In this document: positions 4,741 through 55,584 of the stretch, in pieces
Numbering within the stretch: the first letter of the stretch is position 1
How the letters are laid out: each line of letters opens with the position of its first letter
DNA from: an uncultured Actinomycetes bacterium
Lineage (GTDB): Bacteria; Actinomycetota; Actinomycetes; S36-B12; CAIYMF01
Reading direction: 5' to 3'
DNA length: 64,000 nucleotides
Assembly (NCBI GenBank): GCA_963706885.1
Contig: CAVPNX010000023.1
Span: 14,265-78,264 of the forward strand
The notes under the pieces: generated by a model
What the model was told of the DNA's origin: nothing
Databases searched by the model: none
What the model saw: only the letters and a program-made list of their open reading frames with translations
Made by a program: the position numbers and the translations under genes

Positions 4741-5238
4741 ATGACCCACGAGCCCAGCGCTGGTCCCTCGACGTCGGCCGCTGCGCTGGCCGAGAGCATC
4801 CGGGCCTACCGGGAGGCCACCGAGCTGTTCCTGGTCGTGGCCTCGGCACTGGCCGAGGACGACCTCGACCGGCAACCGCCCGAGCCCGACGGGTGGACGC
4901 CGCGGATGGTGATCCACCACGTCGCGGACTCCGAGACGAACTCGTACGTGCGCCTGCGCCGGCTGCTGGCCGAGCCCGCCGGCACGACCATCCAGGGCTA
5001 CGACGAGGCGCAGTGGGCCCGGGCGCTGCACTACGACCGTCCGGTGGCCCTGTCCCTGGCGGTGTTCCGGGCGGTGCGCGACTCCAGCGCGGAGCTGCTG
5101 GACCTGATCACGCCGGCCGACCTGGCCCGCGCCGGTGTCCACACCGACTCGGGGCCCTACACGTTGGCCGACTGGCTGGACACCTACGTGGCCCACGCCC
5201 GCGACCACGCCGAGCAGATCCGCGCAGCCCTCGGCTGA
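4741..5238 (+). CDS. DinB-family (DinB_2 / mycothiol-dependent-enzyme-like) protein
   Basis: ORF track, 165 aa. Four-helix DinB pattern with the metal histidines (MVIHHVADSE..., YVAHARDHAEQI). Confidence 0.8.
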   Translation: MTHEPSAGPSTSAAALAESIRAYREATELFLVVASALAEDDLDRQPPEPDGWTPRMVIHHVADSETNSYVRLRRLLAEPAGTTIQGYDEAQWARALHYDRPVALSLAVFRAVRDSSAELLDLITPADLARAGVHTDSGPYTLADWLDTYVAHARDHAEQIRAALG

Positions 5239-5261: not shown

Positions 5262-6687
5262 CTACGAGCCGGCCGATTCGATCCGGCCGGCGAGCTCGGT
5301 GCCCGACGACGCGCGCCGCGCGTCGCCGAGCGTGTGGATCCCGCGCTCGCGCAGCAGCGGGATCATCCGGACCAGCACCTCCGCGGTGGCCAGCGCGTCG
5401 CCCAGGGCGGTGTGCCGGCCGATCACCTCCACGCCGAACCGCGCGCACACCCCGTCGAGCCCGTGGCGGGCGTCCGGGTCGGGATCGAGGACCGCGGAGA
5501 GCATCATCGTGTCGAGGCTCAACGGCTCGAGGGTGACCCCGGCCTCGGCGGCCGGTGGCCCGAGGAACCCGAGGTCGAAGGCCAGGTGGTGGCCGACCAG
5601 CACCGAGTCGGCGGCGTAGTCGGCGAAGTCCGCCAGGACGACGGCCCCAGTTGGTGCGTCGGCGACCAGCTCATCGCTGATGCCGTGGAACTTCGTCGAG
5701 GACTCGGGGATGTGCTTGCCGGGGTTCACGAGGGCATCGAACGTGTCATCGGCGCGCACGTGGGCCCCGTCGACCCGGACCGCGCCCAGGGCGATGAGGC
5801 GGTCACCGGCCTCCGAGTGCAGCCCCGTGGTCTCGCAGTCCAGCACCGTGAAGACGATCTGGTCCAGCGGCGTGGCCAACCACTCCTCACGCGTCACGGT
5901 CGGGCGGCTGGGCCGGGCGAGGTCGACCGAGATCCCGACCACCGGTCCGGCGGGTTCCTCGCCGGGCTCCCCGATGATCAGGACCATCCCGGGCTCGTCG
6001 GGACCGGTGATGCGCACCAGGCGGATCGGCGTGCCGGCGACGACGGCTGCCGGCCGCTCGCCGGCCAGGGCACGGCTCAGCAGCGGGGTCAGGTCCTCGG
6101 CGTCGAACACCCCGAAGATGCTGCGTCCCGGCGGCGATCCGCGAGCGGGAGACGAGCATGCGCCGGGCCGCTGGGTTCACCAGCAGGATCCGGCCGCTGT
6201 CGTCGACGACCCCGACCGGGACGTCGAGGCCGGTGAGCACGGCGAACAGGATGTCGCGCTCGCGGGTGAGCTCGGCATGGGCGCTGTCCAGCTGCTCGGT
6301 GAGCCGGTCCTCGGCGGTGGCGTGGCGCTCGGCCAGCACGTTCACGGCCCGTTGGACCGCGGTCGTCCCGGCGAGGCGGTGGGCCGGGTTGACCGTCGCG
6401 ATGATCTCGATGTCGGCCGCCTGCCGGGCGTCGGCGCGCTGCTCGGAGCGCCACGTGCTCCAGGCCACCCAGCCGATCCCCGCCACGAGGACGACGAGGC
6501 CCAGCGCGAGGATGAGCCACTGCGAGCCAAGGGAGTCGAGGAGCGCCCGTCGCGATTCCGGTGGGAGATCCGCCAGGACGACGGCGACCGTGAGCGCCGG
6601 CACGAGGGTGGCGATCGCGATGAGTGCCAGGACCCGCCATCTGGTCACTGATCCACCTCCGCAGCGGTCGGTCGGGGTCCCGGTCAC
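5262..6687 (-). pseudogene. Membrane-anchored PAS-domain / DEDDh 3'-5' exonuclease (DnaQ-like), reading frame broken near 6122-6129
   Basis: N-terminal frame 5887-6687 has 2 TM, a coiled coil and ...DDSGRILLVNPAARRMLV.... C-terminal frame 5262-6110 has LDCETTGL, HHLAFDLGFL, HTALGDALATAEV. Total length 1426 nt = 3n+1. Removing one base gives ...IAAGRSIFGVFDAEDL.... Confidence 0.7.
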
Positions 6688-7670
6688 AGGCCGGTCCGGA
6701 ACGTCACGGACGTGACCGACTGGGCGGCGCGCACCGCGCGGAAGGCCTCGCGCAGCGCCTGCTGGTCGGCCTCGGCCAGGTCGTCGACGGTGACCACGTC
6801 CGAGAGCGCGAGACCGGCGCGCACCTGGTCGACCTGAGCCACCAGGCGCAGCCGGGTGAGCACGTCGAAACCCTCAACAAGTCGGTCGACGAGCTCCTCG
6901 GAGAGCAGCCCTGCGGCGGCCGTGGCGGCCAGCCGCTCCCGCGTGCCGACCGCGCTCGACCGGGCGTCCAGCCCGTACAGGCGAGCCAGAAGGACCAGGG
7001 GTGCCAGGCCTGTGCGCTTGAGGTCGACCGGTCCGTGCGGCAGCCGGCCGAAGGTGTTCAGCGCCGGGGGGAACGACGTGGCGGCGACGGCCAGCCCGTG
7101 CAGCAGGCGCGGGGAGTCGGCCCCGCCGAGCAGGACGTCGACGGCGGGCGTGATGTCGAGGGTCCCGGCCACCTCGCGCAGGTCGAGGAAGACGTCGGTG
7201 TCCACGACGGCCTCGGGCGTCGGCGCCTCCACCCGGTGCCGGGCCGCCACGACCCAGTCAGCCAGGCTGACCGACCAGCGGTCGGCCATGTACCCGCCGT
7301 CGCAGGGTCGCATCCCGAACTCCGCCAGGCCGGCGATCACCTCGGCAGCCAGGTCGTCGGCGTAGCTGCTGGCGGCCGCGCGGTCGGTGTCCCAGATCAG
7401 GGCGTGGTCCTGGTCGCTGGCGCAGTGCAGCTCACCGCGGGCATGCGACCCGAGGGCGACCCACGCGAAGCGCCCCGGCGGTGGCCCGGCCTGGTGCACG
7501 AAGCCGTCGACGAGGTCGCGGGTTCGCTCATCGGCCGCGCGTGCCAGGGCGGCACCCAGGTCGGTCCCGGTGGGGGTTGCACCCGCCGGCAGCGCGAGCG
7601 CAACGGCCACCAGGTCGCTCACGGGCCCGACCCGTCCCGCATGTGGCTCGGAGGTGATCCGATCAGTCAT
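6684..7670 (-). CDS. DUF294-family putative nucleotidyltransferase (NTase plus substrate-binding domain; no cNMP/CBS modules)
   Basis: Starts MTDRITSEPH inside long ORF 6684-9278 (328 aa). Pol-beta NTase motif LGSHARGELHCASDQDHA. ATGA overlap with the symporter stop (7667-7670) and GTGA overlap with the next gene (6684-6687). Confidence 0.75.
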   Translation of the reverse strand: MTDRITSEPHAGRVGPVSDLVAVALALPAGATPTGTDLGAALARAADERTRDLVDGFVHQAGPPPGRFAWVALGSHARGELHCASDQDHALIWDTDRAAASSYADDLAAEVIAGLAEFGMRPCDGGYMADRWSVSLADWVVAARHRVEAPTPEAVVDTDVFLDLREVAGTLDITPAVDVLLGGADSPRLLHGLAVAATSFPPALNTFGRLPHGPVDLKRTGLAPLVLLARLYGLDARSSAVGTRERLAATAAAGLLSEELVDRLVEGFDVLTRLRLVAQVDQVRAGLALSDVVTVDDLAEADQQALREAFRAVRAAQSVTSVTFRTGL

Positions 7671-9409
7671 CGTTGTCCCCTCGCGGTCCAGGCCGGGTGC
7701 AGGTGGGCGGTCTCGGGCGTGTGCAGCCGGATCATCATCCGGTCCACGCCCGGGTGCAGGCGATGGCTGGTCGCCCGCGACACGAGCACCATGGTGGCCA
7801 GCGCCAGGGGCATCGCCCACGCGGCGGGCTGCGCGAGAAGGGCGTCGGGCCAGCCGGTGAGGTCGGGCATCGCGGTTGACAGCGCGATCGCGCCCACGGC
7901 CAGGACCCCGCCGAGGACGAGCCCGGCAGTGGCCCCGACGTCGGTGAGCCGCGGCCACCAGATCCCCAGCAGGAGCAGCGGGCAGAACGTCGCAGCGGCC
8001 ACGGTGAAGGCCAGTGCGACGGCCTGGGCGAGCGGCAGCGCGCTGGCAAGCAGGCTCAGCACGAACGGGGCGAGCACGGCCGCGACTGCGGCCACCCGGA
8101 ACGAGCGGATCGGGTCGTGCACCCAGCGACTGACCACGTCCTGCGACAGCACCCCGGCGACCGTGACGGTCAGGCCCGTGGCGGTGGCCAGGAACGCCGC
8201 GGCGGCACCGGCACACACCAGGGCGGTGAGTGCCATGCCGACGGTGCCGCCGACCAGCGCCTGGGGCAGCAGCAGGACGACCGCGTCCGTCTGCCCGGTC
8301 ATGAGCAGCGCCGGGGTGTAGATCCGCCCGAGCATCCCGAAGACCGACGGCGAGAGGTAGAACAGCCCCACCAGGCCGATGACGATCAGGGCGGTGCGCC
8401 GCGCCTGTCGGCCGTCGGGATTCGTGTAGAAGCGGACGAGCACGTGCGGCAGGCCCATGGTTCCCAGGAACAGCGCGATCATCAGGGCGTAGGTGCGGTA
8501 CATCGGGTGGGACTGCCCGCCCTGCAGCGGTTGCCCCCACGCCGTCCCAGCCGTCGCGGGGGTGGACTCCAGGTGCGGGACGGCCGCACCGGCGGGGAAC
8601 GTGATCGTGGTGCCCGCGTCGATGCTGTGCGTTCCCGGGTCCAGCTGCAGTTCGCCCGCCACGGGGACTGCGTCGATCGTCCCGTCGGCCCGGACGGCCA
8701 CCGGCTCGGTGACGGTGACGGTGATGTCCGTCCCGACCGACACCGTGGTGACCTCCGCGAACGTGGGGACCTCGTCGACCAGGGCGGAGGGTCGGCCGTC
8801 GAGCTGCCAGGCTGCGAGCAGGAAGAGCGCGGGCACCATGATCGCGACCAGCTTGAGCCAGTACTGGAAGCCCTGGACCATCGTGACGCTGCGCATCCCC
8901 CCGCCCACGATCACGACCAGGACCGTCAGCGCGACCAGGACGCCCCCGAGCCAGATGGGGGTGCCGAGCACGGTCTGCAGGGCACGGCCGGCCCCCTGCA
9001 GCTGGGGCACGACGTAGAGCCACCCGATCACCACGACCAGCACGCTGGCCGCCAGGCGGACGGTCGAGGAGCGCAGCCGTGCCTCGCAGAAGTCGGGCAG
9101 GGTGTAGGCGCCGGACCGGCGCAGGGGCGCGGCAACCAGGGCCAGCAGGAGCACGTAGCCCACGGCGTATCCCACCGGGAACCACACCGCGTCGGCCCCA
9201 CCGACCATGATCAGCCCGGCCACCCCGAGGAACGAGGCGGCTGAGAGGTACTCCCCGGAGATCGCCGAGGCGTTCCACCAGGCCGGCACCGAGCGGGCCG
9301 CGACGTAGAAGTCACCGGTCGTGCGGGCCACGCGCGAGCTGTAGCCGGCCAGGGCGATGGTCGCCACGACCGTGGCTGTCATGCCCGCGATGACCGCAGC
9401 GTCGTTCAT
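7667..9409 (-). CDS. Sodium:solute symporter (SSS) family transporter, ActP-related, with an enlarged extracytoplasmic loop
   Basis: Starts MNDAAVIAG (codon 182 of ORF 7667-9952), 580 aa. SSS motifs GDFYVAARSVPAWWNASAISGEYLSAASFLG and GLPHVLVRFYT. Confidence 0.85.
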   Translation of the reverse strand: MNDAAVIAGMTATVVATIALAGYSSRVARTTGDFYVAARSVPAWWNASAISGEYLSAASFLGVAGLIMVGGADAVWFPVGYAVGYVLLLALVAAPLRRSGAYTLPDFCEARLRSSTVRLAASVLVVVIGWLYVVPQLQGAGRALQTVLGTPIWLGGVLVALTVLVVIVGGGMRSVTMVQGFQYWLKLVAIMVPALFLLAAWQLDGRPSALVDEVPTFAEVTTVSVGTDITVTVTEPVAVRADGTIDAVPVAGELQLDPGTHSIDAGTTITFPAGAAVPHLESTPATAGTAWGQPLQGGQSHPMYRTYALMIALFLGTMGLPHVLVRFYTNPDGRQARRTALIVIGLVGLFYLSPSVFGMLGRIYTPALLMTGQTDAVVLLLPQALVGGTVGMALTALVCAGAAAAFLATATGLTVTVAGVLSQDVVSRWVHDPIRSFRVAAVAAVLAPFVLSLLASALPLAQAVALAFTVAAATFCPLLLLGIWWPRLTDVGATAGLVLGGVLAVGAIALSTAMPDLTGWPDALLAQPAAWAMPLALATMVLVSRATSHRLHPGVDRMMIRLHTPETAHLHPAWTARGQR

Positions 9410-9783
9410 CGGCCCTCCACCAGGTCGGTGAACTGCTCCTCGTTGCCCTCCGCGTGGCGGACGTACCACCAGCCGACCCCGAGGATCGCCGGGTACACCA
9501 GGAAGCCCAGGAGCAACCACCACAGCGGCAGCGGACCGACCTGCAGGGCGCGAACTCCGGGCACCAGGCCGAAGAGCAGGGGGAGGGCGGCCAGCGGCAC
9601 GACCACCAGGGCCACGGTCGACAGGCCCAGGAGCAGCTGGGTCCGGATCAGCGCCCGCACGTAGACCACGCCCACGCGGGTCTGCTGGTCGATGTCCTCG
9701 ACAGCTGAGCGGCGGGTGCGCCGGCGCACGTCGCGCCGTGGACCCGTGATCACCTCGCGTCGGGGGCGTTGGGTGGCGGTCAT
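9406..9783 (-). CDS. Small two-TM membrane protein (DUF485/DUF4212-like symporter accessory subunit)
   Basis: Starts MTATQRPRREV (codon 148 of ORF 9406-10224), 125 aa. Basic N-terminus then 2 hydrophobic helices. ATGA overlaps at both ends (9780-9783, 9406-9409). Confidence 0.6.
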   Translation of the reverse strand: MTATQRPRREVITGPRRDVRRRTRRSAVEDIDQQTRVGVVYVRALIRTQLLLGLSTVALVVVPLAALPLLFGLVPGVRALQVGPLPLWWLLLGFLVYPAILGVGWWYVRHAEGNEEQFTDLVEGR

Positions 9784-10661
9784 GGCGCCGCGCCCTCCGC
9801 CGGCTCCGGCTGGTCGCGGTCCAGCCGGTGGCGCTGGACCAGTGCAGCCCGCACCCCGGGGGTGAACCGCCGGCTGACGGGCACCGACTGCCCGGCGCCG
9901 AGCTCCACCGAGACACGGCCGGCTGCCGAGCGCAGTCCCTCGACGAAGGCACCGTTGACCAGGTACCTGCGGTGCACGCGCAGGAACCCGGCGGCCTCCC
10001 AGCGCTCCTCGAGGCTCGCCAGGGGGACCCGCACCAGGTGCCCGCCGGACCGGGTGCACAGGCGGACGTAGTCGCGCTGGGCCTCCACGTACACGATGTC
10101 GGAGCGGCGGACGTAGCGGGTGGTGCCCCCGAGCTCGACGGCGATGGTCTCGTCGGCGGGTGGCGCCGGGGGGCCGGGCGTGGGCTCGGGGGCGACGGCG
10201 GGGGCTGGGGCGCCGGTCGTGCATTGGACCGCGGCGGCCTCGCGGTCGGCGCCGGTGCGCCGGGCCTCGATGGCCGCGCCCACCCGGGCCAGCGCCAGGG
10301 CGAGCCGCTCGGCGCGGATCGGCTTGAGCAGGTAGTCGACGGCCGCCACCTCGAAGGCGTCCACGGCGTGGTTGTCGTAGGCGGTGACGAACACGACCGG
10401 TGGTGGCGCGGCGAACCGGGTCAGGATCCCCGCGAGCGCCAACCCATCGATGCCCGGCATCCGGATGTCGAGGAAGACCGCATCGAACTCGCTCGACTGC
10501 AGGGCCGCGAGGGCATCGGCGGCACTGGTGACGGGCGTGACCGCGGCGACGCCGTCGGAGTTCTCGAGCAGGTAGGTCAACTCACCGAGCGCCGGCGGCT
10601 CGTCGTCGACGGCGAGCACGCGCAGGCCCCGGGGCGCAGGGGTACCGGTGGGCTCACTCAT
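9780..10661 (-). CDS. LytR/AlgR-family response regulator (REC + LytTR DNA-binding domain)
   Basis: Starts MSEPTGTPAPRGLRVLAVDDEP (codon 66 of ORF 9780-10856). Receiver motifs (VFLDIRMPGIDG, LLKP). C-terminal LytTR-like ...IVYVEAQRDYVRLCT...FLRVHRRYLVN.... Confidence 0.85.
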   Translation of the reverse strand: MSEPTGTPAPRGLRVLAVDDEPPALGELTYLLENSDGVAAVTPVTSAADALAALQSSEFDAVFLDIRMPGIDGLALAGILTRFAAPPPVVFVTAYDNHAVDAFEVAAVDYLLKPIRAERLALALARVGAAIEARRTGADREAAAVQCTTGAPAPAVAPEPTPGPPAPPADETIAVELGGTTRYVRRSDIVYVEAQRDYVRLCTRSGGHLVRVPLASLEERWEAAGFLRVHRRYLVNGAFVEGLRSAAGRVSVELGAGQSVPVSRRFTPGVRAALVQRHRLDRDQPEPAEGAAP

Positions 10662-11832
10662 CGACCGCCACCGCCTCGGCGTACTTCGGGATGCGCATCG
10701 TGATCCTGGTGCCCGCACCGGGTGCGGTCTCCACGACCAGCCCCCGGTCGTCACCGAACGTGCTGCGCAGGCGCTCGTCGACGTTGGCCAGGCCCACATG
10801 GTCCCCGGGCGCGCCGGACAGGCTGCGCCGGACCACCGCGGGGTCGATGCCGGCACCGTCGTCCTCGATGCTGATCAGGCAGTCGGCGCCGCGGTCCCGG
10901 GCGGTGATCGTGATCGTTCCCGGTCCATCGGTGTTCTCGAAGCCGTGGCGCACGGCGTTCTCCACCAGCGGCTGGATGCACAGGAAGGGGATCCGGACAC
11001 CGACGACCTCGGGGTCCACGCGCAGGGCGACGGTCAGCCGATCGCCGAACCGGGCCTGCTCCAGCAGGAGGTACTGCTCGATGGAGTGCAGCTCCTCGGC
11101 CAGCGTCGTGAACCGGCCGTGGGATCGGAAGCTGTACCGGGTGAAGTCGGCGAAGTCGAGCAGCAGGTCGCGGGCGCGGTCGGGGTCGGTGCGCACGAAC
11201 GACGCGATGGCGGTCAGCGAGTTGTAGACGAAGTGCGGGGAGATCTGGGCGCGCAGCACGCGCACCTCGGCCTCCGCCGAGCGTGCCCGGGTCCGGTCGA
11301 GCTCGGCGAGGTCCAGCTGGCCGGAGGCGAACACCGCGACCTCCTGGACCGCACGGACCATGGCGGGCCCGGCCGGTTGGGTCGAGTAGGCCACGAGGGC
11401 GCCGATGACGATGTCGTCGGAGGTCAGGGGTGCCGCGACCCCGCTGCGCATGATCTCCGAGACCTCCCGGGCCTGCTGCGAGGTCAGCACGACGACCGCC
11501 CCTGACTCCAGGGCCAGCGCGGCGTGCGCCAGGGCCGCGCGCATCTGGCGCTCACCCACGCCCTCCCACGCCAGGATCTCGGCGCGATCGGCGATCGCCA
11601 GGGCATCCACCCCGAGCAGGGTGCGCAGGGGCTTGGCCGCGCGCTGGGCCGACGCCGGTGTGAGCCCACCGCGCAGCCGGGGTGCGGCGAGGCTGGCCAG
11701 GTGCAGGGTGCGGTAGGTGGCCATGTCGCCCTCGGACCCCAGCCGGGTCCGGCCGCGCACCGCCCGGGCGAGCAGCACTCCGAGAGCGATGGCCCCTGCG
11801 ATCGCCGCGACTGCGAGCACCCAGTCACCCAC
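10654..11832 (-). CDS. LytS-type sensor histidine kinase (single TM, GAF-like region, His_kinase + HATPase_c)
   Basis: ORF track, 392 aa. H-box region QISPHFVYNSLTAIASF; ATPase motifs LVENAVRHG and DDGAGID. 8-nt overlap with the regulator gene. Confidence 0.85.
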   Translation of the reverse strand: MGDWVLAVAAIAGAIALGVLLARAVRGRTRLGSEGDMATYRTLHLASLAAPRLRGGLTPASAQRAAKPLRTLLGVDALAIADRAEILAWEGVGERQMRAALAHAALALESGAVVVLTSQQAREVSEIMRSGVAAPLTSDDIVIGALVAYSTQPAGPAMVRAVQEVAVFASGQLDLAELDRTRARSAEAEVRVLRAQISPHFVYNSLTAIASFVRTDPDRARDLLLDFADFTRYSFRSHGRFTTLAEELHSIEQYLLLEQARFGDRLTVALRVDPEVVGVRIPFLCIQPLVENAVRHGFENTDGPGTITITARDRGADCLISIEDDGAGIDPAVVRRSLSGAPGDHVGLANVDERLRSTFGDDRGLVVETAPGAGTRITMRIPKYAEAVAVDE

Positions 11833-11858
11833 GGGCGCACGCTATCGGCCGCCCGCCG

Positions 11859-11903
11859 CTGTGTCATGGATCCGGCCATCGGAGTGCAGGATCCATGACA
11901 CAG
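11859..11903 (-). terminator. Perfect 15-bp inverted repeat between the acs 3' end and the lytS-like start
   Basis: CTGTGTCATGGATCC (11859-11873) / GGATCCATGACACAG (11889-11903), 15-nt loop. Outer arms CCGCCCGCCG / CGGCGGGCGG extend the stem. Confidence 0.45.
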
Positions 11904-11926: not shown

Positions 11927-13874
11927 TCAGGCCGGGGCGGCGAGGCCGGCCTGGATCTGGGCCATGATCGTGGGGTCGGCCAGCGTGGTCACGTCGCCGA
12001 GGTCGCGATGCTCGGCCAGGTCGCGCAGCAGGCGGCGCATGATCTTGCCCGAGCGGGTCTTCGGCAGCTCGGAGACCACCAGGATCTGGCGGGGCTTGGC
12101 GATCGGGCCGATCTCGTGGGCCACGTGCGCCCGCAGCGCGCCGACCAGGTCCGGGGTGTTCTCGACCCCCGAGCGCAGGATCACGAACGCGACGATCCCC
12201 TGCCCGGTCGTGGCATCGGCAGCCCCGACGACCGCCGCCTCGGCGACCACCTCGTGGGAGACGAGCGCCGACTCGACCTCGGTGGTGGAGATGCGGTGCC
12301 CGGAGACGTTCATGACGTCGTCGACGCGGCCCAGAAGCCAGATGGCACCGTCCTCGTCGAGCTTGGCCCCGTCCCCGGCGAAGTAGTAGCCGTCCCAGCG
12401 CGACCAGTACGTGTCGACGTAGCGGTCGTTGTCGCCCCAGATCCCGCGCAGCATCGCCGGCCAGGGCTCGGTCAGCACCAGGTACCCACCCCCGCCGGGT
12501 CCAACGGGGTGCCCCTCGTCGTCGACGACCGCCGCCGAGATCCCGGGCATCGGACGCATCGCCGAGCCGGGCTTGCAGGAGGTCACGCCGGGCAGCGGGC
12601 TGATCATGATCCCCCCGGTCTCGGTCTGCCACCACGTGTCCACGATGGGGCAGCGCCCGCCGCCGATGACCTCCCGGTACCACATCCACGCCTCCGGGTT
12701 GATCGGCTCGCCGACCGACCCCAGCAGCCGCAGGCTGGACAGGTCGTAGGCCGCGGGGAGGTCGTCGCCCCACTTCATGAACGTGCGGATCGCGGTGGGC
12801 GCGGTGTAGAGGATGGTCACCCGGTGCTTCTCGATGATCTCCCAGAAGCGGCCACGGTGCGGGGTGTCCGGGGTGCCCTCGTAGATCAGCTGGGTCGCGC
12901 CGTTGGCCAGCGGGCCCGTAGACGATGTAGGAGTGCCCGGTGACCCAGCCGATGTCGGCGGTGCACCAGTACACGTCGGTCTCGGGCTTGAGGTCGAACA
13001 CGTTGTTGTAGGTGGAGGCCGCCTGGGTCAGGTAGCCGCCGGAGGTGTGCAGGATCCCCTTGGGCTTCCCGGTGGTGCCCGACGTGTAGAGGATGAACAG
13101 CGGGTGCTCGGAGTCGAAGGCCTGCGGGGTGTGCTCGGTCGGGTGGATCGGCATCCACTCGTGCCACCACACATCGCGACCCTCGTGCCAGTCGACGTCC
13201 TGCCCGGTGTGCTGCACGACCAGCACGTGCTCGACGCTCGGGCAGTGCTCGACGGCCTCGTCGACGGCGGGCTTGAGGGCCATCGCGGCGCCGCGCCGGT
13301 ACTGGCCGTCGGCGGTGATCACCAGCTTGGCCTGGGCGTCGTCGATCCGCGAGCGCAGCGCCTCGGCGGCGAACCCGCCGAAGACCACGGAGTGGACCGC
13401 GCCGATCCGGGCGCACGCGAGCATCGCCACGACGGCCTCGGGGGTCATCGACATGTAGATCGCGACCCGGTCACCGGCGGTCACGCCGAGGGCGGTCAGC
13501 GCGTGGGCGGCCTGCGAGACCCGCGCGAGCAGGTCGGTGTAGGTGATGTGCTCGGTGTTGCCGTCCTCCCGCTCGAAGATGATCGCCGTGCGTTGGCCAC
13601 GGCCCTCGGCGACGTGCCGGTCCAGGCAGTTGGCCGACACGTTCAACTGTCCGCCGACGAACCACTTCGCGAACGGGGCGTTCGACCAGTCCAGGACCTC
13701 GTCCCAGCGGCGGTCCCAGGTGAGTCGATCGGCCTGCTCGGCCCAGAAGCCGAGCCGGTCGGCGTCGGCCTTGTCGTAGAGGGAGGGCTGGGCGTTGGCC
13801 TGGGCGGCGAACTCCGGATCCGGCGCGAAGGTCCGGTTCTCGGTGGCCAGGTTGGCGAGGGTGTCGGTGGACAT
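11927..13874 (-). pseudogene. acs: Acetyl-CoA synthetase, frame broken near 12905-12915
   Basis: N-terminal part starts MSTDTLANLATENRTF (13874) and runs to ...YTSGTTGKPKGILHTSGGYL...[10 protein letters not shown]-terminal part is ORF 11927-12820 ([16 protein letters not shown]...[11 protein letters not shown]). Length 1948 nt = 3n+1, with an extra G in TACGGGCCCGC. Confidence 0.9.
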
Positions 13875-13915
13875 CGGTGATGCTCCTGTCGGCGCGGAGG
13901 GTCGGGGTGGGAGGC

Positions 13916-13971
13916 GGGGGCGTGGTGTCGGGCGCGGGGGCGTGGTGTCGGGTGCGGGGGCGTGGTGTCGG
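13916..13971. repeat. 20-bp tandem repeat (about 2.8 copies), unit CGTGGTGTCGGGYGCGGGGG
   Basis: Read directly at 13921-13940, 13941-13960 and a partial copy at 13961-13971. Lies in the actP-acs intergenic region. Confidence 0.7.
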
Positions 13972-13972
13972 A

Positions 13973-14048
13973 TTGATCCAAGATCGAGGCCCTGCTGGTG
14001 GCCCGGAAGTTGGATCAACCGCCAATCCGCGCAGCGATCTTGGATGAA
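13973..14048. repeat. Short TIR-bounded intergenic element (76 bp)
   Basis: TTGATCCAAGATCG (13973-13986) is the inverted copy of CGATCTTGGATGAA (14035-14048), 13/14 matches. Internal TTGGATCAA at 14010-14018. Related to 19433-19533. Confidence 0.6.
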
Positions 14049-14173
14049 ACCGGGAAGTGGGCGGGGGCGGGGGGCGTGGGGCGTCGTGGGCGTGGTGTGG
14101 GGCGTGGGCGTGGGGGGTGTGGGCCGTCCGGGCGCCGGGGCAGCTGGCTCGCCGACGCCCGGACGGCTGTCAT

Positions 14174-15781
14174 TCAGTGCACCGCGACGGACTTCTCGGC
14201 CCCGGCCCCGGTCAGGGAGCGGACCTCCATCTCGGCGTACTTGGCCTTGTTCGGCTTCTCCTTGTCGGTCACCGCGCCGAGCCAGCCCAGGAAGAAGGCC
14301 AGCGGGATGGACACGAGTCCCGGGTTGTCCAGGGGGAACCAGGAGAAGTCCACGCCCTGGATCATCGAGGCGCTCCTGCCGGTGACCTCGTCGACGGGCT
14401 TGCCGGAGACCACGGGCGAGAAGATGATCAGCCCGACGGAGGCGATGAGCCCGCCGTAGATGCTCCACAGTGCGCCGCGGGTGGTGAAGTTCTTCCAGAA
14501 CAGGGAGTACAGGATCGTCGGGAGGTTGGCCGAGGCCGCGACCGCGAACGCCAGCGCGACCAGGAATGCGATGTTCTGGTCCTTGGCGAGGATTCCGCCC
14601 ACGATGGCGACCAGGCCGATCACCACGGCCGAGATCCGGGCCACCCGGACCTCCTTGTCCGCAGCGACGTCGCCCTTCTTGATGACGTTGGCGTACACGT
14701 CATGGGCGAAGGAGGCGCTGGCCGTGATCGTCAGCCCTGCGACGACGGCCAGGATCGTGGCGAAGGCCACCGCGGAGATGAAGCCCAGCAGCAGGGTGCC
14801 ACCCAGCTCGTAGGCCAGCAGTGGTGCCGCGGAGTTGGCCTTGCCGGGAGCCGTCAGGATGTTCTCCGGACCGACCATCGCCGCCGCGCCGTAGCCCAGG
14901 ACCAGGCTGAACAGGTAGAACATCCCGATCAGGGCGATGGCCCAGACGACGGACTTGCGGGCGTCCTTGGCCGTCGGCACGGTGTAGAAGCGCATCAGCA
15001 CGTGCGGCAGGCCAGCGGTGCCCAGGACCAGCGCCATGGCCAACGAGATGAAGTCGACCTTCGTCAACGTGCTCTTGCCGTACTTGGCGCCCGGCTCGAG
15101 GAGCTTGTCACCCAGAGGGCTGTTGTCGGCGGCGGCACCCATCACGTTCGACAGGGAGAAGCCGTACTTGCTCAGCACCCAGAACGTCATGAGGGCAGCA
15201 CCGGAGATCAGCAGGACCGCCTTGATGATCTGCACCCAGGTGGTGCCCTTCATCCCGCCGACGAGCACGTAGACGATCATCAGCAGGCCGACGATCGCGA
15301 TGGTGATCGACTGGCCGATCCCGCTGTTGATGCCCATCAGGAGGCTGACCAGCCCACCCGCACCGGCCATCTGGGCGAGCAGGTAGAAGAACGAGACGGC
15401 CAGCGTGGAGATCGCTGCAGCGGTGCGCACCGGGCGCTGGCGCATCCGGAAGGCCAGCACGTCGGCCATCGTGAACTTCCCGGTGTTGCGCAGCAGCTCG
15501 GCGACCAGCAGCAGCGCGACCAGCCACGCCACGAGGAACCCGATGGAGTACAGGAAGCCGTCGAAGCCGGTCAGGGCGATGGCCCCGGTGATGCCCAGGA
15601 AGCTCGCCGCGGAGAGGTAGTCCCCGGCGATGGCGGTGCCGTTCTGGCCGCCGGTGAAGGACCGACCGCCGGTGTAGTAGTCGGTGGCGGTCGTGTTGGA
15701 CTTCGAGGCGCGGATGACGATGATCATCGTGACGGCGACGAACGCCAGGAAGATCGCCATGTTGACCACCGGGCTGCCCAC
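14174..15781 (-). CDS. actP: Cation/acetate symporter ActP
   Basis: ORF track, 535 aa. SSS motifs TDYYTGGRSFTGGQNGTAIAGDYLSAASFLG and GLPHVLMRFYT. Preceded by a DUF485 gene as in yjcH-actP. The true start may be ATG 15821 (see findings). Confidence 0.9.
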   Translation of the reverse strand: MGSPVVNMAIFLAFVAVTMIIVIRASKSNTTATDYYTGGRSFTGGQNGTAIAGDYLSAASFLGITGAIALTGFDGFLYSIGFLVAWLVALLLVAELLRNTGKFTMADVLAFRMRQRPVRTAAAISTLAVSFFYLLAQMAGAGGLVSLLMGINSGIGQSITIAIVGLLMIVYVLVGGMKGTTWVQIIKAVLLISGAALMTFWVLSKYGFSLSNVMGAAADNSPLGDKLLEPGAKYGKSTLTKVDFISLAMALVLGTAGLPHVLMRFYTVPTAKDARKSVVWAIALIGMFYLFSLVLGYGAAAMVGPENILTAPGKANSAAPLLAYELGGTLLLGFISAVAFATILAVVAGLTITASASFAHDVYANVIKKGDVAADKEVRVARISAVVIGLVAIVGGILAKDQNIAFLVALAFAVAASANLPTILYSLFWKNFTTRGALWSIYGGLIASVGLIIFSPVVSGKPVDEVTGRSASMIQGVDFSWFPLDNPGLVSIPLAFFLGWLGAVTDKEKPNKAKYAEMEVRSLTGAGAEKSVAVH

Positions 15782-15817
15782 GGTCGTGGTCGACAGGGTC
15801 GGGAACGGCTGTGGTGA

Positions 15818-16192
15818 TCATGCGAGGCCCTCCATCTCGTCGCGGATCTCGGTCGCCAGCGGGTCGAGGCGGTTGTTGGCGTGGCGGACGTAGAGGAAGG
15901 TGATCAACGCGGTCGAGACGAACTGCAGCAGGCCGAAGATGACGCCGATGTTGATGTTGCCGACGACCTCGGTGGCCATCCACTCCGGCGCGAAGACCGC
16001 GGCGAACACGAACATGAAGTACCAGACGAGGAAGGCGGCGGTCATCGGGAAGGCGAAGCCCCGGTAGCGGCTGCGCAGCTCGATGAACTGCGGGCTGGTC
16101 TGCGCCCGCGAGTACGCCTCAGGATCCGGGACGCCCCCGGTTCCCTGCGGCGGCGGCCCCTGGCGCGGGGGCCCCTGGAGATCACTGGTCAT
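15818..16192 (-). CDS. DUF485 (YjcH-like) inner-membrane protein
   Basis: ORF track, 124 aa. ...FIELRSRYRGFAFPMTAAFLVWYFMFV... followed by a second TM helix. Stop overlaps an ATG (ATGA at 15818-15821). Confidence 0.85.
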   Translation of the reverse strand: MTSDLQGPPRQGPPPQGTGGVPDPEAYSRAQTSPQFIELRSRYRGFAFPMTAAFLVWYFMFVFAAVFAPEWMATEVVGNINIGVIFGLLQFVSTALITFLYVRHANNRLDPLATEIRDEMEGLA

Positions 16193-16448
16193 CGTGCTGC
16201 CTCCTGGTATGTGCTCGCCGGACCGGCTGGCCCGGGCCTTGGTTGTGCCCGGTGTGGGTGGCGTGAACGTAGGGCAGCCGGGACGTGGCCGGGAACAGCT
16301 GCGGGCCTGCCTGCGGTGAGCGGGAGGTGGCCCTCGACCAGAGGTCAGCCGGTGTGCGACGAACGGTCGTCACGCCCGACGAGCGGTGGCATGCGGATCG
16401 GCCACGGGAGCGGGGAGGTTGCCCGTGTGCGGCGCGGCCAGCGAGCTC

Positions 16449-38636: not shown

Positions 38637-40378
38637 ATGAGTAAGGCAACCACGAGCGCGAAGGTGGCGGCTCTCGCTGCTGCGTCCGCGCTCCTGCTGG
38701 CCGCCTGTGGGGGCTCGGACAGTGGTGACGCTGCTGCCAGCGGAGGGGCGGGTGAGCCCACCAAGGGTGGCGCGCTGACCTTCCTGACCGAGGGTGAGCA
38801 GTTCAACCACCTCGACCCGCAGCGCAACTACACCGGCGAGGACCTCGCGTTCACCACCGGGTACCTGAACCGCACGCTGGTCCAGTACGCCCTGTACGCC
38901 GACGACAACGAGGCCGGCAACCTGGTCCCGGATCTGGCGACCGACATCGGCACTCCCACCGAGGGCGGCAAGGTCTGGAGCTTCACCCTCAAGGACGGCA
39001 TCAAGTTCGAGGACGGCACACCGATCACCTGTGCCGAGGTCGCCTACGGCGTCTCCCGGACCTTCGCCACCGACGTCATCACCGACGGGCCCGCAGTACG
39101 CGATCTCGCTGCTGGACATCCCCAAGGATGACGACGGCACCTCGGCCTACAAGGGCCCGTACGACGGCACCGGCCAGGAGCTCTTCGACAAGGCGGTGAC
39201 CTGCTCCGAGGACGGCAAGACCGTCACCTTCAACCTCGCGCAGCCTGCCGCGGACTTCAACTACACCACGACGCTGACGGCGTTCTCGCCCGTCCCCAAG
39301 GCTGCGGACACCGGTGAGAAGTACGACGACAAGCCGCTGGCCTCCGGCCCGTACAAGATCGAGTCCTACCAGAAGGGCACGTCGCTGAAGCTGGTCCGCA
39401 ACGACCGAGTACGATCCGGCCACCGACGAGTCGGGCCGCGGCGCCTACCCGGACACCATCGAGGTCAAGTTCGCCGTGCCCCTGTCGGTGTCCAGCCAGC
39501 GGCTCATCGCCGACTCCGGCGAGGACCAGAAGATGACCACCATCGGCCTGCAGCTCGATCCCGCGCAGCTGGCCGCGGTCTTCAACGACCCGAAGTTCGA
39601 GGACCGTCGGTTCGATGACTTCGATCCGTACTCGATCTACCACGCCATCAACACCGAGAAGGTGCCGAACGTCGAGCACCGCAAGGCGATCGCCGCCGCG
39701 TACCCGCGCGAGGACCTGCGCACCATCGCCGGTGGCAACTTCGCCGGTGACCTCGCCGACGGCGTGATCAAGCCCAACCTGGCCCTGGACTACCAGCCCT
39801 CGGGCATGTGGACGGGCCTGCTCGGCGCGGAGATCCCGGACAACGGGGACCCGGAGATCGCGAAGAAGTTCATCGCCGACTCCGGCGAGCCGATGCCGGA
39901 GCTGACGTTCGACTACCAGAAGACCGAGGTCAACGACAAGGCCGCCGCGGCGATCGTGACGGCCCTGGAGAAGGCCGGCATCAAGGTCACCCCGAACCCG
40001 CTCGATCCGGGTGGCTACTACGGCATCGTGATGGACCCGGACAAGGCCGGCTCGATCATGACCGGAGGCTGGGGACCGGACTGGTTGAACGCCTCCACGG
40101 TCATCCCCGAGCTGTTCACCCCGGCGGGCGGATTCAACCTGTCGCTGTGGGACAACCCGGAGTTCACCAAGGCCTCCGATGAGGCCAAGCAGATCGCCGA
40201 CCGCACCGCACAGGGTGCGGCCTGGGCCGAGCTGAACAAGCAGGCGATGGCCGAGGTCGTCGTCGTGCCGACGCGGTTCAGCCGGCAGCAGGGCATCGTC
40301 GGTTCCAAGATCGGCGGAGCGTTCGTCTGGGCGCCGTACGGCTCCTGGAACTACGCGAACATGTACGTCGCGCAGTAG
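38637..40378 (+). pseudogene. Peptide ABC transporter substrate-binding lipoprotein (family 5 SBP), two frame breaks (about 39090 and 39406)
   Basis: Three consecutive frames: ORF 38637-39131 (lipobox LLAAC), ORF 39031-39618 (QYAISLLDIPKDDDG...LKLVRND) and ORF 39476-40378. Extra G in GACGGGCCCGC and extra C in AACGACCGAG. Length is 3n+2. Confidence 0.85.
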
Positions 40379-54503: not shown

Positions 54504-55584
54504 TCAGGGCGTGAGGCGGGCGGCCGCTGCGGTGATTCGCTCGTCGGTGGCGGTCAGGGCTACTCGGACGTGGTGGGCGCCGGCGCGGCCGTAGAACTCG
54601 CCGGGGGCGACGAGGATCCCCCGGTCGGCCAACCACGCCACGGTGTCCCAGCACGGCTCCCCGCGGGTGGCCCACAGGTAGAGCCCGGCGGCGGACTCGT
54701 CGATCCGGAAGCCGGCCTCGGTCAGGGCGGCGATCAGGATCTCGCGTCGTGAGCCGGTACACCGCACGCTGGGCGACCACGTGCGCGTCGTCGCCGAGCG
54801 CGGCGATCGCGGCGGCCTGCACCGGACCGGGGACCATCATCCCGGCGTGCTTGCGCACCTCCAGCAGGGCGGCGATGACCGTCGGGTCGCCGGCGGCGAA
54901 CCCGAAGCGGTAGCCCGCCAGGTTCGACCGCTTCGACAGCGAGTGCAGGGCGATCACGCCGGTCGGGTCGCCGCCGCAGACGTCCGGGTGCAGCACGGAG
55001 ACGGGCTGCTCGGTCCAGCCCAGCTCGTAGTAGCACTCGTCGGAGACGACCAGGACCCCACGTTCGCGGGCCCAGGCGACGACCTTGGCCATGTGGTCCA
55101 CCGGAAGGACCTTGCCGGTGGGGTTGCTCGGCGAGTTCAGCCACAGCAGCGAGACCCGCGCCGGGCCGATGGCCGTCAGGGAGTCGGCGACCAGGACCTG
55201 CGCGCCGGCGAGCCGGGCGCCCACGTCGTAGGTGGGGTAGGCCAGTTCGGGGATCACAACCCGGTCGGTGGGACCGAGACCCAGGAGCGTGGGCAACCAG
55301 GCCACGAACTCCTTCGTCCCGATCGTGGGCAGCACGTCGGTGCCGGCCGGGGCGCCCAGACGCCGCGCGACCCACGCGAGGATGGCCTCGCGGGTGGCCG
55401 GTGCGCCCGTGGTGAGCGGGTACCCCGGGGAGTTCGCGGCGGCCGCCAGAGCCTCAGCGATGACCGGAGGGGTCGGATCGACCGGGGTGCCGATGGACAG
55501 GTCGATGATCCCACCGGGGTGGGCGGCCGCCCGTTCCTTGAACGGGGTGAGCCGATCCCAGGGGAAGTCGGGGAGTGTTCTCAG
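54504..55584 (-). pseudogene. dapC: N-succinyldiaminopimelate aminotransferase (class I aminotransferase), frame broken near 54748-54753; start codon unclear
   Basis: Upstream frame reads ...LPDFPWDRLTPFKERAAAHPGGIIDLSIGTPVDP...SLSKRSNLAGYRFGF...AVYRL. Downstream frame (ORF 54504-54767) reads RREILIAALTEAGFRIDES.... Lies directly after the ferredoxin gene. Confidence 0.8.

Follow-up and report, generated by a model that had tools for sequence, protein, structure and literature searches.

A six-gene operon of an uncultured Actinomycetes bacterium, lying in a 64,000-nt stretch of contig CAVPNX010000023.1 (assembly GCA_963706885.1, positions 14,265 to 78,264, forward strand; hereafter the window), joins a LytS-type histidine kinase and a LytTR-family regulator to a small membrane protein, a sodium:solute symporter (SSS), a DUF294 nucleotidyltransferase, and a membrane-bound DnaQ-type exonuclease. 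According to our analysis, it is well supported that this locus is a genuine operon, strongly conserved among uncultured actinobacteria. The DUF294/exonuclease gene pair is itself not new, being known from Pseudomonas; it spans four phyla, and across phyla it accompanies monocarboxylate transporters and acs. The new form is the one embedded in a LytS/LytTR-SSS unit, with a sensor-less transferase and a membrane sensor-exonuclease, and so far it occurs only in uncultured Actinomycetes. Structural modeling predicts that the transferase carries the protein-adenylyltransferase fold of GlnE and DrrA. We tentatively propose that the operon may encode a regulator-controlled throttle on monocarboxylate uptake or activation, in which one enzyme would write and the other erase a nucleotidyl mark.

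Layout and conservation of the operon

The six genes and the three genes upstream of them are as follows.

10654–11832, minus strand: LytS-type histidine kinase, 392 aa, with GAF, His_kinase (PF06580), and HATPase_c domains (Pfam, hydropathy)
9780–10661, minus strand: LytTR-family response regulator, 293 aa, with REC and LytTR domains (Pfam); its start overlaps the kinase stop by 8 nt
9406–9783, minus strand: 125-aa protein with two transmembrane (TM) helices, putative symporter partner of DUF485/YjcH-like type; ATGA overlap at both ends
7667–9409, minus strand: SSS-family sodium:solute symporter, 580 aa, called SSS2 (Pfam SSF, E 9.5e-41)
6684–7670, minus strand: DUF294 nucleotidyltransferase, 328 aa, with DUF294 and DUF294_C domains (Pfam PF03445 and PF10335)
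5262–6648, minus strand: membrane sensor-exonuclease with two TM helices, a HAMP-like hairpin, a PAS domain, and a DnaQ-type DEDDh domain; 461 aa in orthologues
11927–13877, minus strand: acs, acetyl-CoA synthetase gene, split (tblastn in two frames)
14174–15781, minus strand: MctC-type monocarboxylate symporter, called SSS1 (NCBIfam MctC equivalog, 894 bits; cut-off 670)
15818–16192, minus strand: DUF485 (YjcH-like) small membrane protein with two TM helices, upstream of the MctC-type symporter

The GC content of this region is 72–75%, and lists of open reading frames (ORFs) are therefore full of spurious frames. Genes were picked by codon-position GC analysis together with Pfam, and all those picked lie on the minus strand; TM helices and stop/start junctions were taken from hydropathy and junction analysis. 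The first-pass annotation of this DNA had described six co-directional minus-strand genes, and Pfam confirmed the domains that it assigned to them. Four of the stop/start overlaps are also as it gave them (ATGAGTGA at 10654–10661 and ATGA at 9780–9783, 9406–9409, and 7667–7670), and the acs, DUF485, and MctC-type symporter genes do lie directly upstream of the six-gene block.

A scan with a transferase alignment against 185,579 species-representative genomes yielded 39 loci, all from uncultured metagenome-assembled genomes (MAGs) of Actinomycetes, Candidatus Nanopelagicales, or Micrococcales. About 30 of the 39 share one gene order (tblastn), namely DUF485-SSS1, acs, kinase, regulator, small protein, SSS2, transferase, exonuclease; it held down to a transferase identity of 53–60%, in agreement with the called-gene tables. 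This conservation of the neighborhood bears out the earlier suggestion that the six genes form one unit. The position of acs varies, either upstream or downstream (L044), and unrelated genes separate it from the kinase gene in L002 and L055, so that what stays constant is the six-gene block. A minimal form was found in L033 (7038–10614), which packs acs, a gene for a DUF294 protein of 317 aa, and one for a stand-alone exonuclease of 211 aa closely together, with spacers of 4 and 27 nt, and lacks the kinase, regulator, and SSS2 genes. The exact six-gene cluster was found in no cultured organism, all 39 genome matches being MAGs, and our literature search found no paper on an actinobacterial LytS/LytTR version. 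Directly beyond the exonuclease gene lies a convergent DinB_2-family gene (4741–5238, plus strand), which occupies the same position in L001 and L053, so that local synteny reaches past the operon.

The nucleotidyltransferase, the exonuclease, and their pairing in other phyla

Both Pfam matches of the transferase, 90.6 bits for DUF294 and 117.1 bits for DUF294_C, are over the gathering score. Pfam and an 18-sequence alignment agree with the initial description of a 328-aa protein that has kept the Pol-beta G-S...DxD signature and lacks cNMP and CBS modules; G74, S75, D86, and D88 (the DxD pair), as well as D159 and D163, are invariant. The fold assignment comes from an AlphaFold2 model (predicted local distance difference test, pLDDT, 88.9; predicted TM-score, pTM, 0.87) compared with the PDB by Foldseek. 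The best match was the AMPylation domain of Legionella DrrA (E 4e-7, TM-score 0.67, 324 columns), followed by both adenylyltransferase domains of Escherichia coli GlnE (E 2e-5), and these matches span nearly the full length of the protein. Aminoglycoside nucleotidyltransferases (ANTs) matched at E 0.017 or worse, RNA uridylyl/adenylyl transferases (TUTase, PAP/mtPAP, Cid1) at E > 1, and the MNT-type structures 7ae9 and 7bxo were among the weaker matches. No CD-NTase or OAS structure matched at E ≤ 0.001, and none was among the 50 matches listed. At the sequence level, the transferase profile gave only a marginal match to an MNT antitoxin among PDB sequences (E 0.53) and none to solved AMPylases. 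DUF294_C has been placed in the same KNTase_C/HEPN-like clan as the C-terminal domains of GlnD and GlnE (PMC3710099).

The exonuclease domain (PF00929, E 1e-30) has an intact DEDDh site, with D270, E272, D358, H412, and D417 invariant in a 27-sequence alignment (Exo I DxE, Exo II D, Exo III H-x4-D); the motifs quoted earlier for both enzymes are present in the sequence. In the AlphaFold2 model (pLDDT 83.9), TM1 comprises residues 3–27, and TM2 begins at residue 44 and continues as a long helix, which a conserved NPxHR connector joins to a second long helix ending at residue 139. This arrangement is HAMP-like; a Pfam HAMP match is weak and was obtained in the Pseudonocardia homologue only. A PAS domain (145–226) and the DnaQ-type domain (266–448) follow, and the best Foldseek matches were the exonuclease domain of DinG, E. 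coli Pol III epsilon (31% identity), PolC, RNase T, and ExoX.

The two TM helices, long helices, PAS domain, and DEDDh motifs first read from this gene thus hold, but a single intact ORF is not present in the window. The span 5262–6687 (1426 nt) contains ORF pieces at 5887–6687 and 5262–6110 in different frames, and a tblastn comparison with intact orthologues of 461 aa locates the change of frame at 6127/6128 (frame A 6127–6648, frame B 5262–6128). The window reads GCCGCCGGGACGC where L001, L002, and L053 all have one base fewer, which corresponds to a 1-nt insertion at about 6126. Both halves retain 90–92% amino acid identity to the orthologues and a high coding signal in third-position GC; the gene is intact in contig L053 (96% nucleotide identity), as it is in about 30 orthologues of 461 aa. 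The overlap GTGA at 6684–6687 had been taken as the start of the gene. In contrast, the first residues of all orthologues are those specified here by GTG 6648 and the codons after it (VTRWRVLAL). This GTG is preceded, at a distance of 6 nt, by a GGAGGTGG motif, and in L053 the GTG farther upstream is not in the frame of the exonuclease gene, owing to a 1-nt indel in the spacer. By these sequence comparisons, GTG 6648 is probably the start and GTGA 6684–6687 probably is not.

The first-pass annotation had suggested that similar pairs occur near acs/actP in Proteobacteria. Plasmid and chromid records support this, as do the published loci PP_0354/PP_0353 and PA3232-PA3235 (PMC9927547, PMC9765439). 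A tblastn search with the transferase against annotated plasmids and chromids gave 63 records, of which seven were sampled. An exonuclease gene adjoins the DUF294 gene, often overlapping it, in six of the seven, and DUF485-ActP directly precedes the pair in three of these six. Pseudomonas aeruginosa and Methylocella have the order DUF485, ActP, DUF294, exonuclease; in Paracoccus yeei the order is acs, DUF485, ActP, DUF294, a small REC gene, and a 646-aa exonuclease; and in Vibrio cyclitrophicus, Hymenobacter (Bacteroidota), and Cytobacillus (Bacillota) the pair stands by itself. The exception is Skermanella, in which DUF4212, SSS, and DUF294 genes are followed by a membrane protein instead of an exonuclease; the pairing is therefore frequent, not absolute. 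The cultured Pseudonocardia aurantiaca (L042:5333–12085) encodes a CBS-DUF294 protein, a 65-aa ORF, a kinase with an N-terminal membrane domain that can be aligned to SSS transporters, a protein consisting of REC alone, and an exonuclease of 694 aa; next to them lie DUF485-SSF, in divergent orientation, and an acyl-CoA synthetase gene. This variant is a possible experimental model.

The exonuclease domain of the window is 44% identical to that of the long Pseudonocardia enzyme and 40% identical to that of the long Paracoccus enzyme, and 22–28% identical to those of short stand-alone enzymes. Sensory input is distributed differently among lineages: the transferase bears cNMP/CBS domains in Pseudomonas and a CBS domain in Pseudonocardia, and the exonuclease has TM, HAMP-like, and PAS parts in our locus, and long N-terminal regions plus a REC protein in Paracoccus and Pseudonocardia. 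The REC protein is translationally coupled to the exonuclease in both of these genera, so that the exonuclease appears to be a two-component output.

In Pseudomonas putida, ErdR binds to the promoter of an operon made up of PP_0354 (cNMP, two CBS, DUF294) and PP_0353 (RNase_T) (PMC9927547), and the P. aeruginosa genes PA3232-PA3235 are co-induced about 16-fold on propionate (PMC9765439). A preprint of September 2026 placed the P. putida pair among the most MxtR/ErdR-dependent genes, reported moderate deletion defects on propionate and pyruvate, and treated the two proteins as putative regulators, suggesting protein modification by analogy with PII uridylylation (10.64898/2026.09.07.749794). 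The same nucleotidylation guess was made by Sepulveda and Lupas for Pflu5625. The function of the pair "remained unclear" in the preprint, consistent with the earlier statement that none is established (10.64898/2026.09.07.749794). Our search for literature combining DUF294, exonuclease, and acetate found nothing, and full-text matches to "DUF294" were mostly to DUF2946.

Sensing, transport, and regulatory DNA

The kinase matches PF06580 (E 7e-23) and HATPase_c (PF02518, E 4e-13). Its only hydrophobic/TM helix is N-terminal (residues 1–27, hydropathy), the GAF domain is cytoplasmic, and Pfam gave no match to the 5TMR_LYT (5TM-LYT) sensor domain; the unusual architecture first read from the sequence, a LytS core with one TM helix, was therefore confirmed. 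The orthologue in L001 is 94% identical, and the kinase belongs to a family of approximately 391-aa proteins abundant in metagenomes. The regulator matches PF00072 (E 9e-23) and PF04397 (E 1e-16), and its nearest NCBIfam models are BtsR and LytR, both under the equivalog cut-off.

In a sub-clade of the related loci, the regulator and small-protein genes are separated by a gap of 140–175 nt (L014:6704-6875, L017:6705-6878, L018:1172-1345, L019:2539-2703, L022:6694-6835, L055:10934-11104). Within the gap, a unit of about 15 nt (e.g., TGCGACGTTGTTG) occurs four times, twice directly and twice inverted, and RNAalifold predicts a two-stem hairpin, with compensatory changes in 12 of 37 pairs. This element could be an attenuator, a processing site, or a four-site operator ahead of the small-protein, SSS2, transferase, and exonuclease genes. 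It is absent from the window, where the regulator and small-protein genes overlap.

The 125-aa protein matches DUF485 (PF04341) weakly (E 9e-4; 19.6 bits, cut-off 28), and its BLASTP match to the neighboring DUF485 protein is marginal (E 0.023); its size, two-TM topology, and position correspond to those of the true DUF485 at 15818–16192, which is 91% identical to an L001 gene with a PF04341 match. SSS2 is a paralogue of the neighboring MctC-type symporter (about 34% identity, tblastn). Among the NCBIfam models it comes closest to the VC_2705 family (248.6 bits, cut-off 320.75), and it also falls under the equivalog cut-offs of MctC (193.9 bits vs. 670) and ActP (189 vs. 750). Hydropathy indicates about 13 TM helices. 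TM6 and TM7 are separated by a hydrophilic segment of some 100 aa (residues ~206–306, window ~8492–8794), and compared with MctC or the VC_2705-family profile this region has about 60 additional residues. The segment is probably extracytoplasmic and could be a ligand- or partner-binding loop.

The ORF of the MctC-type symporter is in frame with the DUF485 stop codon, and its first in-frame start is GTG 15781 (window 15781–15820). Their counterparts in L001 lie in different frames, with an overlap of 4 nt; the start of SSS1 is therefore uncertain, or a further indel is present. Right after the mctC stop, at 14123–14167, lies a GC-rich hairpin of 16 bp, with its sequence kept in close relatives and its position in distant ones, which is likely a factor-independent terminator without a U-tract.

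Three elements were recognized in the intergenic DNA.

16336–16387, minus strand: three phased 10-bp direct repeats, ACCGCTCGTC, ACCGTTCGTC, and ACCTCTGGTC, spaced by 20 and 22 bp, upstream of DUF485-mctC
11839–11844, minus strand: -10-like hexamer TAGCGT, 6 nt upstream of the kinase GTG
11859–11903, minus strand: perfect 15-bp inverted repeat, CTGTGTCATGGATCC-N15-GGATCCATGACACAG, between acs and the kinase gene

The direct repeats lie about 75–120 bp upstream of a -10-like box (TACGTT, 16266–16271). The tandem pair occurs once in the 64 kb (shuffle mean 0.013), and the same pair is found at the same position in at least 10 related loci, divergent ones included. Direct repeats phased by about 21 bp are the classical layout of a LytTR operator, the core of the motif also resembles the AlgR box, and we regard those at 16336–16387 as a candidate operator of the DUF485-mctC operon, to which the regulator would bind. 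Single sites were discarded as a signal: ACCGTTCGTC was observed 7 times in the window against 6.3 expected, and only the phased tandem is significant.

A TANNNT hexamer stands 6–7 nt before the kinase start in 29 of 29 related loci, in which the remaining intergenic DNA differs, and no Shine-Dalgarno sequence precedes the kinase start. In keeping with the features of actinobacterial promoters, TAGCGT is a candidate promoter of a leaderless operon transcript that would start at the GTG, and the operon probably has such a promoter of its own. The palindrome at 11859–11903, kept only in the closest relatives, has a predicted RNA fold of -45.5 kcal/mol (z -6.05) and could terminate acs transcription or serve as an operator, in overlap with the -35 region. 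Scans for consensus sigma-70 promoters and intrinsic terminators found nothing, as expected for an actinobacterium with 73% GC.

Upstream of acs, the window has a 20-nt tandem repeat (13914–13971; 2.9 copies, 97% matches). Since relatives do not conserve them, these C-rich repeats were rejected as operators. A further element, about 85 nt long (13969–14052) and bounded by 18-nt inverted repeats (CGGATTGATCCAAGATCG / CGATCTTGGATGAAACCG), is common to L001/L006 and L005 only and missing in the other close relatives; it may represent a small insertion of mobile or regulatory nature.

A possible nucleotidylylation switch, its alternatives, and known systems

In the mechanism that we propose, the kinase, which has no extracytoplasmic sensor, would read the availability of monocarboxylates through its GAF domain and/or through the SSS/small-protein pair as a co-sensor. 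The kinase and the SSS pair would then be a split analogue of the SLC5-fused kinases CrbS/MxtR, an idea supported by the Pseudonocardia variant, since its SSS is fused to the kinase. The regulator would activate the DUF485-mctC operon through the three phased repeats and probably its own operon too. The DUF294 enzyme would put one nucleoside monophosphate (NMP) or a short NMP chain on an uptake or activation protein, with Acs, a symporter, or the small subunit of the latter as candidate targets, and the HAMP-like/PAS-gated membrane exonuclease would hydrolyze the phosphodiester, freeing 5'-NMP. Together, the two enzymes would form a rapidly acting post-translational throttle, both on the influx of carboxylate and on the drain of ATP to AMP by Acs.

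Several observations point in this direction. The two enzymes may be an antagonistic pair because their genes are co-inherited, because sensors occur on either enzyme depending on the lineage, and because REC is coupled to the exonuclease. A 3'-5' exonuclease and a de-AMPylase both hydrolyze a phosphodiester and release 5'-NMP, and MNT-type transferases oligo-AMPylate HEPN toxins, a modification that would provide a natural substrate for an exonuclease. The first-pass annotation had proposed a make-and-break module for either a nucleotide signal or protein nucleotidylylation. The second option is favored because the best folds are DrrA and GlnE and not CD-NTases or RNA polymerases; the make-and-break chemistry itself is an inference.

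Other points weigh against this reading. To our knowledge, no DEDDh enzyme de-nucleotidylylates proteins, and the exonuclease domain, at 31% identity to E. coli epsilon, resembles an ordinary nucleic-acid 3'-5' exonuclease. DUF294 enzymes are not known to modify proteins, and the role of the SSS as co-sensor is pure analogy. The repeat motif was derived by k-mer enrichment from the same loci used for its test, and LytTR-type repeats were not found upstream of acs or of the kinase gene at ≤2 mismatches. The Pseudomonas deletions are mild (PMC9927547, 10.64898/2026.09.07.749794): growth on acetate was unaffected by deleting PP_0353 or PP_0354, and growth on pyruvate was slow in the PP_0353 mutant and not in the PP_0354 mutant (PMC9927547). 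Finally, if the frameshifts in the window are real, this strain has neither a working exonuclease nor a working Acs. On balance, a regulator-controlled nucleotidylylation throttle is a serious possibility that falls somewhat short of an even chance, and the narrower proposal, that a DnaQ-type DEDDh enzyme erases the protein (oligo)nucleotidylylation written by DUF294 and so gates uptake or Acs, is rather doubtful.

Because the exonuclease looks like a nucleic-acid enzyme and its proposed role has no precedent, substantial weight has to be kept on two alternatives, each of them unlikely when taken singly. The DUF294 enzyme could make a linear or cyclic (oligo)nucleotide second messenger, which the DEDDh enzyme would degrade as Orn degrades pGpG/pApA, with a receptor adjusting transport or acs. 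Signaling-type input domains occur on both enzymes in one lineage or another, and the succession of TM, HAMP-like, PAS, and catalytic parts is typical of second-messenger enzymes; Pol-beta nucleotidyltransferases also include cGAS/DncV and OAS, and DEDDh enzymes include oligoribonuclease. The modeled fold is nevertheless that of GlnE/DrrA, with CD-NTase and OAS structures missing from the Foldseek matches as described above, and the exonuclease is best matched by DnaQ, PolC, and DinG-type enzymes rather than Orn. The PADLOC models, including those of CBASS cyclases, miss the transferase and give only generic DEDDh matches for the exonuclease, and no conserved gene of the cluster is a candidate receptor or effector. 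An anti-phage defense system was also considered and rejected, given the lack of a PADLOC assignment and the metabolic neighbors. In the other alternative, the transferase would add untemplated nucleotides to mRNA (of the acs/transporter regulon), tRNA, or small RNA, and the exonuclease would trim them, setting stability or activity. The canonical 3'-5' exonuclease domain with its intact site would suit such a role, and the Pol-beta CCA-adding enzyme and poly(A) polymerase are opposed by trimming of the RNase T/PH type. Henriquez et al. speculated that PP_0353 degrades mRNAs (PMC9927547). RNA tailing is made improbable by a transferase fold far from TUTase, Cid1, and mtPAP, by the absence of a detectable RNA-binding domain from both proteins (profile scans), by the lack of any Rfam match in or around the operon at E ≤ 0.1, and by a membrane anchor that would be odd for an RNA-processing exonuclease.

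A decaying locus or a chance neighborhood, with real frameshifts and a strain that has lost the pathway, is very improbable. Two of the nine genes of the acetate locus do carry single-base insertions relative to all relatives: besides the exonuclease gene, acs is split by one extra base at about 12912–12916 (window TACGGGCCCGCTGG; L001 TACGGG-CCGCTGG), with its N- and C-terminal parts in different frames (window 12905–12920). Genes elsewhere in the window are, however, also split, and for this reason we read both frameshifts as most likely an assembly error and not as locus-specific decay: an SBP_bac_5 solute-binding gene (38769–40375, plus strand) appears cut into two or three frames, and an aminotransferase gene (54567–55449, minus strand) looks split as well. 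This suggests single-base errors scattered over the whole assembly. The related genomes are mostly long-read soil MAGs with random split genes. Decay is further opposed by the identity and coding signal retained in both exonuclease-gene halves, by the intact contig L053, and by a neighborhood kept in about 30 species-level genomes.

If the proposed erasure by the exonuclease is true, it would add a new reversible post-translational switch, present in at least four bacterial phyla, with input either on the writer (cNMP/CBS) or on the eraser (HAMP-PAS/REC). The actinobacterial variant indicates that the transferase can act without cNMP/CBS sensors, that the exonuclease itself can be a membrane signal receiver, and that the pair can be either hard-wired into a LytS/LytTR-SSS unit or reduced to acs, transferase, and exonuclease. 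Together with the DrrA/GlnE-like fold, this variant leads to a concrete hypothesis, the reversible nucleotidylylation of an uptake or activation protein, which is testable in P. putida and P. aeruginosa mutants. Its relevance lies in the question of how the drain of ATP to AMP by Acs is kept in check in bacteria supplied with plentiful short-chain fatty acids.

Among known systems, GlnE and DrrA/SidM share with the DUF294 enzyme the G-S...DxD Pol-beta core followed by a helical KNTase_C/HEPN-like domain, at only 13–16% sequence identity. Their marks are removed by a second nucleotidyltransferase domain (GlnE), by an HD domain (GlnD), or by SidD (DrrA), and in none of them by a DEDDh enzyme. 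The two-component part resembles BtsS/BtsR and YpdA/YpdB of E. coli and LytST-PftAB of Bacillus subtilis, in which a kinase with PF06580, HATPase, and GAF domains likewise acts with a REC-LytTR regulator. Those systems are known to control a monocarboxylate transporter through direct-repeat operators with a spacing of about 21 bp, whereas the repeats described here are candidates. They also have a 5TM-LYT sensor instead of one TM helix and a transporter of the CstA or LrgAB type instead of the SSS type, and the transferase/exonuclease pair is an addition to the operon of the window.

The closest counterpart of the pair itself is PP_0354/PP_0353 (PA3233/PA3232) in the MxtR/ErdR (CrbS/CrbR) regulon, with the same two enzyme families encoded by adjacent, co-oriented genes, near a DUF485-ActP-type symporter and/or acs, and under a carboxylate-responsive two-component system. 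The Pseudomonas transferase has about 600 aa with cNMP and CBS domains, whereas ours has 328 aa and neither; the 208-aa Pseudomonas exonuclease is 25% identical to the 461-aa membrane protein with HAMP-like and PAS parts described here; and control is exerted there by an SLC5/STAC hybrid kinase with CrbR and here by LytS/LytTR, with six genes in one unit that includes a second, divergent SSS. The long variants of Paracoccus yeei and Pseudonocardia aurantiaca also align with our exonuclease in the HAMP/PAS region, and they too place the pair within two-component signaling beside DUF485-SSF and an acyl- or acetyl-CoA synthetase. They differ in having a stand-alone REC gene ahead of the exonuclease gene, CBS modules on the transferase, and no LytTR regulator, and the Pseudonocardia variant alone has a CrbS-like, SSS-fused HisKA kinase.

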